Source: a virus. Taken from it: a stretch of DNA of 13,400 nucleotides. The notes below the pieces were generated by a model. That model was not told the origin of the DNA and did not search any database. It saw nothing but the letters and a program-made list of their open reading frames with translations. The translations under genes and the position numbers were made by a program. Of the stretch, positions 9,505 through 13,400 are shown one piece after another; positions within the stretch are counted from its first letter, which is position 1; the number at the start of each line of letters is the position of its first letter. The stretch lies in the UHGV virus genome UHGV-0365817. One strand, 5' to 3'.

Positions 9505-9576
9505 GCGCGGCGTTACCGCATACCAATAACGCTTCACTCGAGGCGTTTTTCGTTATGTATAAATAAGGAGCACACC

Positions 9577-9741
9577 ATGCAATATGCCATTGCAGGGTGG
9601 CCTGTTGCTGGCTGCCCTTCCGAATCTTTACTTGAACGAATCACCCGTAAATTACGTGACGGATGGAAACGCCTTATCGACATACTTAATCAGCCAGGAG
9701 TCCCAAAAAATGGATCAAACACTTATGGCTATCCAGACTAA
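9577..9741 (+). CDS. cIII: CIII protein (FtsH inhibitor that stabilises CII)
   Basis: 54-codon ORF absent from the track (under 60 aa): ATG at 9577 preceded by AAGGAG; translation [54 protein letters not shown] matches lambda CIII. Confidence 0.85.
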   Translation: MQYAIAGWPVAGCPSESLLERITRKLRDGWKRLIDILNQPGVPKNGSNTYGYPD

Positions 9742-10229: not shown

Positions 10230-11015
10230 ATGAGTACAGCACTCGCAACGCTGGCTGGGAAGCTGGCTGAACGTGTCGGCATGGATTCTGTCGACCCACA
10301 GGAACTGATCACCACTCTTCGCCAGACGGCATTTAAAGGTGATGCCAGCGATGCGCAGTTCATCGCATTGCTGATCGTCGCCAACCAGTACGGCCTTAAT
10401 CCGTGGACGAAAGAAATTTACGCCTTCCCTGATAAGCAGAACGGCATTGTTCCGGTGGTGGGCGTTGATGGCTGGTCCCGCATCATCAATGAAAACCAGC
10501 AGTTTGATGGCATGGACTTTGAGCAGGACAATGAATCCTGTACATGCCGGATTTACCGCAAGGACCGTAATCATCCGATCTGCGTTACCGAATGGATGGA
10601 TGAATGCCGCCGCGAACCATTCAAAACCCGCGAAGGCAGAGAAATCACGGGGCCGTGGCAGTCGCATCCCAAACGGATGTTACGGCATAAAGCCATGATT
10701 CAGTGTGCCCGTCTGGCCTTCGGATTTGCTGGTATCTATGACAAGGATGAAGCCGAGCGCATTGTCGAAAATACTGCATACACTGCAGAACGTCAGCCGG
10801 AACGCGACATCACTCCGGTTAACGATGAAACCATGCAGGAGATTAACACTCTGCTGATCGCCCTGGATAAAACATGGGATGACGACTTATTGCCGCTCTG
10901 TTCCCAGATATTTCGCCGCGACATTCGCGCATCGTCAGAACTGACACAGGCCGAAGCAGTGAAAGCTCTTGGATTCCTTAAACAGAAAGCCACTGAGCAG
11001 AAGGTGGCAGCATGA
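10230..11015 (+). CDS. bet: Bet (Red-beta single-strand annealing protein)
   Basis: 261-aa ORF ([66 protein letters not shown]...) recognised as lambda Bet. Confidence 0.95.
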
Positions 11016-11692
11016 TACCGGACATTATCCTGCAGCGTACCGGGATCGACGTGAGAGCTGTCGAACAGGGGGATGATGCATGGCACAAATTACGGCTCGG
11101 CGTCATCACCGCTTCAGAAGTTCACAACGTGATAGCAAAGCCCCGCTCAGGAAAGAAGTGGCCTGACATGAAAATGTCCTACTTCCACACCCTGCTTGCC
11201 GAGGTTTGCACCGGTGTGGCTCCGGAAGTTAACGCTAAGGCGCTGGCCTGGGGAAAACAGTACGAGAACGACGCCAGAGCCCTCTTTGAGTTCACTTCCG
11301 GCGTGAATGTTACTGAATCCCCGATCATCTATCGCGACGAAAGTATGCGCACCGCCTGCTCTCCCGATGGTTTATGCAGTGACGGCAACGGCCTTGAACT
11401 GAAATGCCCGTTTACCTCCCGGGATTTCATGAAGTTCCGGCTCGGTGGTTTCGAGGCCATAAAGTCGGCTTACATGGCCCAGGTGCAGTACAGCATGTGG
11501 GTGACGCGAAAAGATGCCTGGTACTTTGCCAACTATGACCCACGAATGAAGCGTGAAGGCCTGCATTATGTCGTGGTTGAGCGGGATGAAAATTACATGG
11601 CGAGTTTTGACGAGATGGTGCCGGAGTTCATCGAAAAAATGGACGAGGCACTGGCTGAAATTGGTTTTGTATTTGGGGAGCAATGGCGATGA
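11012..11692 (+). CDS. exo: Exo (lambda exonuclease, Red-alpha)
   Basis: 226-aa ORF ([65 protein letters not shown]...) recognised as lambda Exo. Its start overlaps the bet stop. Confidence 0.95.
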
Positions 11693-12035: not shown

Positions 12036-12115
12036 CAACCACTGAATGCATTTTTCTGGCAGCGGGCTTCATATTCTGTGTGCTTATGCTTGCCGACATG
12101 GGACTTGTTCAATGA
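12032..12115 (+). CDS. Candidate 27-aa hydrophobic micro-protein, translationally coupled on both sides
   Basis: ATG at 12032 overlaps the orf63 stop (ATGA) and its TGA overlaps the next ATG at 12112 (ATGA). Translation MTTTECIFLAAGFIFCVLMLADMGLVQ is consistent with a single transmembrane helix. Confidence 0.35.
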   Translation: MTTTECIFLAAGFIFCVLMLADMGLVQ

Positions 12116-12327
12116 CACCTCAGCAGGAAAACGCCCTTCGCAGCATTGCCCGTCAGGCTAATTCTGAAATCAAAAAAGCCAGACAGCAGTTTCCGGATAA
12201 AAACGTCGATGACATTTGCCGTAGCGTACTGAAGAAGCACCGCGAAACGGTAACGCTGATGGGATTCACACCGACTCATTTAAGCCTGGCAATCGGCATG
12301 TTAAACGGCGTCTTTAAGGAACGATGA
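12112..12327 (+). CDS. Small early-left protein (71 aa), orf61-like
   Basis: Internal Met of track ORF 12046..12327: MTPQQENALRSIARQANSEIKKARQQFPDKNVDDICRSVLKKHRETVTLMGFTPTHLSLAIGMLNGVFKER. No domain recognised. Confidence 0.6.
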   Translation: MTPQQENALRSIARQANSEIKKARQQFPDKNVDDICRSVLKKHRETVTLMGFTPTHLSLAIGMLNGVFKER

Positions 12328-12425
12328 ACATGAAAAGCAAAATCATCAGGGAGCTACAGGCTCCTTTTTTATTATTCGCATTCACCCTCAAGCGTATTAA
12401 CCAACAATTCAGGGATTAATGGAAG

Positions 12426-12647
12426 ATGGCAGACATCATTGATTCAGCATCAGAAATTGAAGAATTACAGCGCAACACAGCAATAAAAATGCGTCGTCTG
12501 AACTACCAGACTGTATCTGCCACTCATTGTTGTGAGTGTGGCGATCCGATAGATGAACGAAGACGCCTGGTCGTTCAGGGTTGTCGGACTTGTGCAAGTT
12601 GCCAGGAGGATCTGGAGCTTATCAGTAAACAGAGAGGTTCGAAGTGA
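12426..12647 (+). CDS. TraR/DksA-family C4 zinc-finger protein (lambda Orf73-like)
   Basis: 73-aa ORF with a CxxC...CxxC motif (HCCECGDPIDERRRLVVQGCRTCASCQ) and an acidic N-terminus, characteristic of phage TraR-like RNA-polymerase-binding proteins. Confidence 0.85.
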   Translation: MADIIDSASEIEELQRNTAIKMRRLNYQTVSATHCCECGDPIDERRRLVVQGCRTCASCQEDLELISKQRGSK

Positions 12648-12895
12648 GCGTAATTCACTCTCAGGCACTGCGTGAAGCGGCAGAGCAGGCAATGCCTGAC
12701 AACTGGGGATTTGACGCGGACCTTTTCCATGAGCTGGTAACACCATCGATTGTGCTGACACTGCTGGATGAACGGGAAAGAAACCAGCAATACATCAAAC
12801 GCCGCGACCAGGAGAACGAGGATATTGCGCTAACGGTGGGGAAACTGCGTGTTGAGCTGGAGACAGCAAAAATCAAAACTCAACGAGCAGCGTGA
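12644..12895 (+). CDS. ea22: Ea22-like protein, N-terminal portion, ending at an in-frame TGA
   Basis: GTG start at 12644 overlapping the TraR-like stop, with an AGAGAGG Shine-Dalgarno. Translation MSVIHSQALREAAEQAMPDNWGFDADLFHELVTPSIVLTLLDERERNQQYIKRRDQENEDIALTVGKLRVELETAKIKTQRAA resembles the lambda Ea22 N-terminus. The same frame stays open for 53 more codons after the TGA. Confidence 0.6.
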   Translation: MSVIHSQALREAAEQAMPDNWGFDADLFHELVTPSIVLTLLDERERNQQYIKRRDQENEDIALTVGKLRVELETAKIKTQRAA

Positions 12896-13183
12896 GTAGA
12901 AGGTGTTATCTCGGATGGAAGTAAGCGTATTGCTGAACTGGAGGCCTGGGTTGAATACACAAGAGCTGCATACGTAAGAGCAAAAGACAAGGGAGATTTG
13001 ATCAGAGTTATTACCCGCCAACCAACGGGATTTTACGCTTACGTACCATGTAATTAGGAATCCTTGAAGTGGCAGCCTAACTGCGGATACACTGAAATGG
13101 CGATTTGGTAACATGTTTCGCACAAGGCTGTTACTACACTTAGAGATAATCAGCCATGATTAAACGCTTTGTAAAAAGTAAAA

Positions 13184-13255
13184 GGAAATTACAATGAAAA
13201 AATCAATACTAATTTTAGGGCTTACGTTAATTGTCTCATCTCAAATACCATCGGC
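13184..13255 (+). pseudogene. Signal-peptide-like ORF truncated by IS1 insertion
   Basis: ATG at 13184 with an AAGGAAA Shine-Dalgarno; translation MKKSILILGLTLIVSSQIPSAMG has a signal-peptide-like N-terminus. The last codons and the stop are supplied by the IS1 terminal repeat, which begins at 13251. Confidence 0.4.
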
Positions 13256-13400
13256 AATGGGGTAATGACTCCAACTTATTGATAGTGTTTTATGTTCAGA
13301 TAATGCCCGATGACTTTGTCATGCAGCTCCACCGATTTTGAGAACGACAGCGACTTCCGTCCCAGCCGTGCCAGGTGCTGCCTCAGATTCAGGTTATGCC
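13251..13400 (-). mobile_element. IS1: IS1 insertion sequence, partial: right terminal inverted repeat and 3' end of insB, continuing beyond the window
   Basis: GGTAATGACTCCAACTTATTGATAGTG at 13251 onward is the IS1 terminal inverted repeat as I know it. The minus-strand reading frame ending at 13276 encodes the InsB C-terminus (...[40 protein letters not shown]). Confidence 0.9.
13276..13400 (-). CDS. insB: IS1 transposase InsB, C-terminal fragment (partial at window edge)
   Basis: Minus-strand frame open from the window edge to the stop at 13276..13278; its translation matches the InsB C-terminus. Confidence 0.85.

Follow-up and report, generated by a model that had tools for sequence, protein, structure and literature searches.

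The Ea22 proteins of lambdoid phages consist of a short N-terminal segment, followed by a coiled coil and by a C-terminal domain that varies (PMC10834534, PMC7093339), and their common C-terminus is K/R-G-E (PMC7093339). Full-length Ea22 assembles into tetramers, against dimers for the C-terminal domain on its own (PMC10834534); this domain is inactive by itself (PMC10834534, PMC7093339). In Stx and other lambdoid phages Ea22 is mosaic, the N-terminus and the coiled coil being shared and the C-terminal domains interchangeable (PMC10834534, PMC7093339). The lambda protein (NP_040612) comprises 182 residues, of which the last 81 (residues 102-182) form the C-terminal domain with a K/R-G-E end; the structure of this domain (PDB 8dsx) covers residues 102-182 and begins right after KRIAKLE. 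Its gene is located in the exo-xis region right after a TraR-like gene, and its GTG start overlaps the upstream TGA. In IMG/VR, 89 alleles with an intact junction were identified, in which a conserved block extends to ...SKRIAELE, beyond which the C-terminal modules are numerous and unrelated. Most complete modules in this database comprise 69-186 residues counted from EGVISDG, and they mostly end in ...IKGE or a close variant. The EaA-like proteins, such as CYRAN_97 of Cyrano and XSB42471 of PhiR41_1, have 220-284 aa and contain neither the Ea22 N-terminus nor its Pfam domain.

The locus described here was identified in a window of 13,400 nucleotides (the whole stretch of DNA that was analysed), where the leftward early arm of a lambda-like prophage is carried on the plus strand. 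This arm comprises bet (10230-11015, +) and exo (11012-11692, +), followed downstream by genes with DUF1317 and DUF1382, which occupy the places of lambda orf60a and orf63 respectively, and, instead of lambda orf61, by an unrelated ORF (12046-12327), all of them on the plus strand. The latter encodes 93 aa from its first ATG, is called by PGAP as a hypothetical protein of 71 aa (WP_000188870.1) and matched no Pfam family up to its cut-off. Rfam, at the gathering threshold, identified only Lambda_thermo, the cIII thermoregulator (9564-9622, +, 88.5 bits), which is far from the ea22 locus and is consistent with a lambda-like early left operon; an ORF of 237 aa in the window is presumably the lambda cI repressor. 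A terminator-like hairpin (12348-12376; AGGGAGC-TAC-AGGCTCCTT, then a T-rich run) is placed between the 93-aa ORF and the next gene, within the operon. This next gene encodes a TraR/DksA-type C4 zinc-finger protein of 73 aa (12426-12647, +; Pfam PF01258, 36.7 bits), named 'TraR/DksA family transcriptional regulator' in RefSeq. Several lambda records contain a 'TraR/YbiI family' or 'DksA/TraR C4-type zinc finger' gene at the same place, just upstream of ea22, and the title of PMC9239242 presents lambda Orf73 as a TraR homologue. The ea22-like ORF follows as it does in lambda and in the isolated phage Chlobot, that is, in the exo-xis region after orf60a, orf63 and the TraR-like gene, and on the strand of exo and bet.

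The ea22-like ORF (12644-12895, +) is formed by a GTG start, 83 codons and a TGA stop. The GTG (12644-12646) overlaps the TGA of the TraR-like gene (12645-12647), a Shine-Dalgarno-like GAGAGG was identified at 12632-12637, and the start region aligns to lambda ea22 including its annotated GTG start. The stop is placed at 12893-12895, and beyond it no further stop interrupts this frame for 53 codons (12896-13054; VEGVISDGS...YVPCN) up to a TAG at 13055-13057. The coordinates of the ORF, its TGA and the open run had been given exactly in a sequence-only reading of the window, which had also noted a strong Shine-Dalgarno and proposed the coupling to the TraR-like gene and the kinship with ea22; both proposals are supported, the kinship by a match of the 83-aa product to Pfam PF13935 (Ead_Ea22; 74.8 bits, cut-off 27). 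Residues 3-76 of this product cover positions 2-110 of the 139 of the profile and the TGA falls inside the domain, the frame through the whole conserved domain being interrupted in this allele. The product is equivalent to the short N-terminal segment and most of the Ea22 coiled coil, and about its last eight residues (IKTQRAA) are out-of-frame sequence. In the annotation of Chlobot, the ea22 fragment begins at an internal ATG and has 67 aa. As a bare statistic the open run of 53 codons is unremarkable, intervals of at least 53 codons between stops being 8.3% of all those in the six frames of the window (composition-based expectation, 6%), yet the run is not due to chance because homology accounts for it.

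The lesion is a pair of indels and not a nonsense substitution. In a three-way DNA alignment of the window, lambda ea22 and Chlobot, exactly two indels separate the window from lambda in a region of near-identity with scattered substitutions that extends from the GTG to about 12943. The first is the insertion of one base in a run of adenines (12868-12872, +), with five in the window and four in lambda and in the intact alleles. The second is the deletion of four nucleotides (TTAC) between 12898 and 12899 on the plus strand, where lambda presents GAG TAT TAC GAA (E-Y-Y-E) and the window presents GAG TA- --- -GAA. The 26 nucleotides between both indels (12873-12898, +) are identical to those of lambda, are read one base off register and hold the TGA, so the lambda reading ...AKSKLNEQREYYEG... 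becomes ...AKIKTQRAA-TGA-V-EG... in the window. Around ten codons are read out of frame, and the original frame is back at 12899 with a net change of -3; it is because +1 and -4 sum to -3 that the frame appears to continue past the TGA. All three frames are closed within 12893-12924: the TGA at 12893, a TAG at 12897-12899 in the ancestral frame, created by the TTAC deletion, and a TAA at 12922-12924 in the third frame. The removal of one A and the re-insertion of TTAC restored ...AKSKLNEQREYYEGVISDG..., and the repaired protein presented 95 identities in 102 residues (93%) without gaps to residues 1-102 of lambda Ea22, and 100.2 bits to PF13935 over profile positions 2-139 of 139. The alignment of Ea22 homologues across the TGA, which had been suggested as a check, was thus carried out and homology does cross the stop; the nonsense point mutation proposed together with it has to be replaced by the insertion and the deletion. 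Among the database relatives of the 83-aa product there is a variant of 93 aa (P0009) that reads ...ETAKIKNSTSSVSRRCYLGWK, in which the reading changes frame beyond ...AKIK and stops at the TAA of 12922-12924. This shift to the third frame is due to one more indel or to a sequencing error in this region.

Two segments of different origin compose the open run beyond the stop. The first, after a single V codon, comprises 16 codons (12899-12946, +), EGVISDGSKRIAELEA, and is true Ea22 coiled coil in its original frame; it is the end of the conserved Ea22 block and precedes every C-terminal module catalogued in IMG/VR. The second comprises 36 codons and the TAG (12947-13057, +), WVEYTRAAYVRAKDKGDLIRVITRQPTGFYAYVPCN*, and is foreign, with neither the Ea22 C-terminal domain nor the K/R-G-E end. 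The earlier view of the downstream segment as a continued coiled coil therefore holds for the first 16 codons and fails for the remaining 37, which are unrelated mosaic sequence. Positions 12947-13025 are in frame with an internal piece of EaA-like phage-plasmid proteins (Cyrano, PhiR41_1 and CMS-2020a, by tblastn and blastn), with 69-77% amino-acid and 86-90% nucleotide identity, and the last ten codons of the tail, along with the intergenic DNA that follows, come from yet other sources. The tail matched no Pfam family and showed no similarity to the lambda Ea22 C-terminal domain, its end being VPCN. It reads as a mosaic patch of formerly coding DNA and not as an Ea22 C-terminal domain, and the sequences indicate that lambdoid prophages and phage-plasmids have exchanged fragments of genes. 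The search of the protein database with a tail query of 41 aa returned no Ea22-tail fusion and only four short fusion proteins, and the scan of genome contigs (one genome per species) with a tail 31-mer returned nothing. The segment matched by positions 12947-13025, WVECTRAAYVRAKDKGELTRVV, belongs to EaA-like hypothetical proteins encoded beside the Ea22-like genes of phage-plasmids of around 108 kb, among which are Cyrano, PhiR41_1 and CMS-2020a, together with over 100 plasmids of E. coli. An antisense ORF covering the TGA and the tail (12830-13123, minus strand, 97 aa) matched no Pfam family and is probably spurious; its counterpart in Chlobot is annotated as CDS0046 (hypothetical protein).

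Compared with the described systems, the locus shares with lambda the position right after the TraR-like gene in the exo-xis region and the GTG that overlaps the upstream TGA, but it is frameshifted (+1, -4), stops at codon 84 and presents a foreign patch of 37 codons instead of the 81-residue domain with its K/R-G-E end. Neither a folded C-terminal domain nor that end, both features of the functional Ea22 of lambda and Stx phages, is present. Unlike the interchangeable modules of the mosaic Ea22 proteins, that of the window is short, with 37 residues and VPCN as its end, and in nearly all cases it is not translated. The likeness to the EaA-like proteins is limited to a single internal fragment of 26 residues. 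The view of the gene as shorter than lambda ea22, diverged from it and decayed agrees with these differences.

The intact and single-indel states of the junction were obtained from a metagenome scan with the tail 31-mer and from look-ups of database proteins. The intact state (four adenines and TATTAC) was identified in a human gut metagenome contig (L145), where a complete Ea22-like ORF of around 182-190 aa ends in the tail. Two loci (L148 and L149) contain only the run of five adenines and present the same TGA, with the tail out of frame. Other two, L132 and L158 (an E. coli draft genome), contain only the TTAC deletion and end in ...NEQRE-TAG, the tail being out of frame as well. All four combinations of the two indels are thus found in public data, the double one in 33 of the 122 junction-bearing loci of the IMG/VR scan and in around 50 of the 58 tail-bearing loci. 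The tail was identified in 31 contigs of IMG/VR, all with the double indel, and exact scans of this database for either single-indel junction returned none. A sister lineage, comprising E. coli 1409 (L153) and PI12 (L154), presents an intact junction and two TAG codons placed two codons apart, GAG to TAG at 12941-12943 and TGG to TAG at 12947-12949, the former just before the first tail codon and the latter at it. These TAG codons are placed in a cluster of around 7 substitutions in 30 nt, and the gene is labelled 'incomplete; missing C-terminus' by PGAP. This lineage represents a second, independent inactivation of the same mosaic gene. Other ea22 alleles of IMG/VR are also truncated or frameshifted (L014, L017 and L025), and recombination has joined the frameshifted 3' segment of the window to five or more other N-terminal variants.

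This allele has a very wide distribution. A stretch of 617-618 nt of the window is shared, with 100% identity, by a large number of independent complete genomes of E. coli, both in chromosomes and in plasmids, and by 33 IMG/VR contigs. Chlobot carries the allele as well (98.9% identity over a match of 835 nt, identical across the junction), and its isolation with this allele implies that an intact ea22 is dispensable. The locus was identified in 128-131 of 5,426 complete E. coli genomes. The best 30 of 128 matches to the repaired query of 172 nt were all double-indel alleles with 97.1% identity and a length of 169 nt against 172 nt, and no intact or single-indel allele ranked above the double-indel one in the 5,426 genomes. 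At least 1000 contigs encode exactly this 83-aa product, which the protein databases name 'ead/Ea22-like family protein'. A loss of the gene described as recent is, in view of this distribution, doubtful. In RefSeq the locus already has an annotation as a pseudogene, given by PGAP ('ead/Ea22-like family protein; frameshifted; incomplete; missing C-terminus') and corresponding to positions 12692-12943 of the window. The pseudogenes SE697_RS09155, DTO54_RS17820 and WD728_RS14715 are the same allele with 100% identity; their annotation contains neither the +1/-4 anatomy nor the origin of the tail.

The reading with the highest probability, of roughly 0.86, is that ea22, a lambdoid accessory gene located here in the exo-xis region of a prophage similar to lambda, is present as a decayed, frameshift-truncated allele. 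The history of this allele would comprise two steps. In the first, mosaic recombination would have swapped the Ea22 C-terminal domain just after the ...KRIAELE(A) linker, the replacement being a short in-frame patch derived in part from an EaA-like gene; L145 would be a surviving intact fusion. In the second, in the lineage of the window, the two indels would have been acquired 26 nt apart, the run of four adenines becoming five (+1) and TTAC being lost (-4). With either indel alone the protein already ends at nearly the same point (TGA at codon 84 or TAG at codon 85); the second indel was therefore probably neutral in its effect, and the net change of -3 would have put the remnant back in its starting frame by accident. 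Both orders of events are possible because both single mutants exist and slippage in the run of adenines is reversible. The open run would then be composed of 16 fossil codons of Ea22 and 37 codons of formerly coding patchwork. The likely product in the cell would be the 83-residue N-terminal and coiled-coil fragment made from the conserved GTG, presumably with little or no Ea22 function, and the translation of the tail would reach at most the background leakiness of UGA.

Two observations count against this reading: intact alleles are far rarer than double-indel ones, and the 83-aa ORF has retained both its start and its translational coupling. The variants of the N-terminal ORF among the double-indel alleles were 5 nonsynonymous and 3 synonymous, too few to separate neutrality from weak constraint; those of the tail were 6 nonsynonymous and 2 synonymous (5 and 2 without the T-to-P change of P0004), small numbers that are consistent with neutrality. 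Though real and reproducible, the feature is an ordinary one, to be understood as a frameshifted remnant of ea22 and not as a candidate for readthrough or recoding; its value is mainly that of a correct annotation. It is also a clear case of compensating +1 and -4 indels that mimic an in-frame stop with a continuing ORF, and it illustrates how an accessory gene of the exo-xis region may decay in lambdoid prophages after the swap of its C-terminal module.

The persistence of the start and the abundance of the allele can also be explained by an adaptive truncation, which is considered unlikely. Here the selected product would be the N-terminal segment with the coiled coil, of 83-100 aa and devoid of the C-terminal domain, which might, by oligomerising, modulate or antagonise the Ea22 from co-resident lambdoid prophages. 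The higher-order assembly of Ea22 depends on the N-terminal or the coiled-coil part, as indicated by the tetramer of the full-length protein against the dimer of the C-terminal domain (PMC10834534). Both independent truncations, the frameshift pair and the double TAG of 1409 and PI12, spare the N-terminal two-thirds; the start codon, the GAGAGG and the overlap with the upstream stop are all intact; and the mobility of the frameshifted 3' segment among N-terminal variants would fit as well. The number of contigs encoding the 83-aa product points in the same direction, but hitch-hiking on a successful prophage explains such a high frequency equally well. The variants of the fragment, in small numbers, give no sign of constraint, and the other truncated or frameshifted alleles of IMG/VR are those expected of a dispensable gene. 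If the fragment were active, it would bear on which part of Ea22 carries the pro-lysogenic activity.

Readthrough or recoding of the TGA at 12893-12895, also raised by the sequence-only reading as the lesser of its two options, is very improbable. It would yield, at a low level, a protein of 137 residues formed by the N-terminus, the scrambled patch, the linker and the tail, the deletion having been selected for the frame that it restores. The net change of -3 would make such a product continuous, and among the stop codons of E. coli UGA is the most prone to leakage. The fold of the 81 nt around and after the TGA has a minimum free energy of -13.2 kcal/mol against a mean of -17.6 kcal/mol for shuffled sequences (z = +1.5), that is, it is less stable than these; neither a SECIS-like element nor a stimulatory hairpin was identified 3' of the UGA in this fold, and Rfam returned nothing at the locus. 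The stop and its in-frame extension are not conserved among the relatives, since L145 contains no stop, L148, L149, L132 and L158 present the tail out of frame and L153 and L154 contain other stops. The tail, besides being a patchwork without the Ea22 C-terminal domain, presents the 6 nonsynonymous and 2 synonymous variants given above, with the same caution on small numbers. Programmed ribosomal frameshifting was discarded because no alternative frame is open, the TGA at 12893, the TAG at 12897 and the TAA at 12922 closing all three. Transcriptional slippage would need a run of more than five adenines. No sign of readthrough, selenocysteine or programmed frameshifting was identified at this stop.

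A sequencing or assembly artefact, in which a miscall of the adenine homopolymer gives a false stop, has a negligible probability: one of the two changes does lie in a homopolymer and a few database variants, such as P0009, differ there again, but a deletion of 4 nt is not a homopolymer error, and the identical allele in many independently sequenced genomes, in 33 IMG/VR contigs and in Chlobot already refutes it.

The decayed ea22 allele also contains a perfect inverted repeat of 9 bp, with its left arm at 12921-12929 (GTAAGCGTA) and its right arm at 13034-13042. At the left arm fall the right-hand junctions of several fusions and deletions, independent of each other, in other datasets. Five different fusions were identified in Logan and in metagenome contigs (L123-L127, L139, L150 and L151), with the right junction within 12921-12925, at the K of KRIAELE. 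Their left partners, all in frame with the tail, are Orf63 residues 1-12, Orf63 residues 1-17, NinD residues 1-19, Bet (...ERDITPV) and an inverted-duplication joint; one of the five may be an artefact of amplification or assembly. In P0030, a natural Ea22 variant that is intact, the SKLNEQREYYEGVISDGS block is missing and the join falls directly at KRIAELE. Positions 12921-12925 may be a hot spot of illegitimate recombination from which in-frame fusions with the tail arise repeatedly. As DNA, the region of the inverted repeat does not fold with unusual stability (z = -0.4), which makes a hairpin a weak explanation for such a hot spot.

Downstream of the tail the window contains the start of a gene encoding a hypothetical protein of 204 aa (13195-13261, +), of which around 22 codons are left before it is broken by an insertion sequence. 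The segment MKKSILILGLTLIVSSQIPSAMG is the hydrophobic N-terminus of this protein and looks like a signal peptide by eye. The gene is uninterrupted in Chlobot and in most of the E. coli carriers. The insertion is the end of an IS1-family element (13262-13400), with 93.5% identity over 138 nt to the annotated IS1 of strain EP91B, and it runs past the end of the window; in EP91B itself the IS1 is inserted elsewhere than in the window. Strain 81EVA (H31), with 100% identity to the query, presents just downstream an IS5-family transposase pseudogene and not IS1. In other strains, IS1, IS5 and IS3 were identified at differing sites of the same small region.
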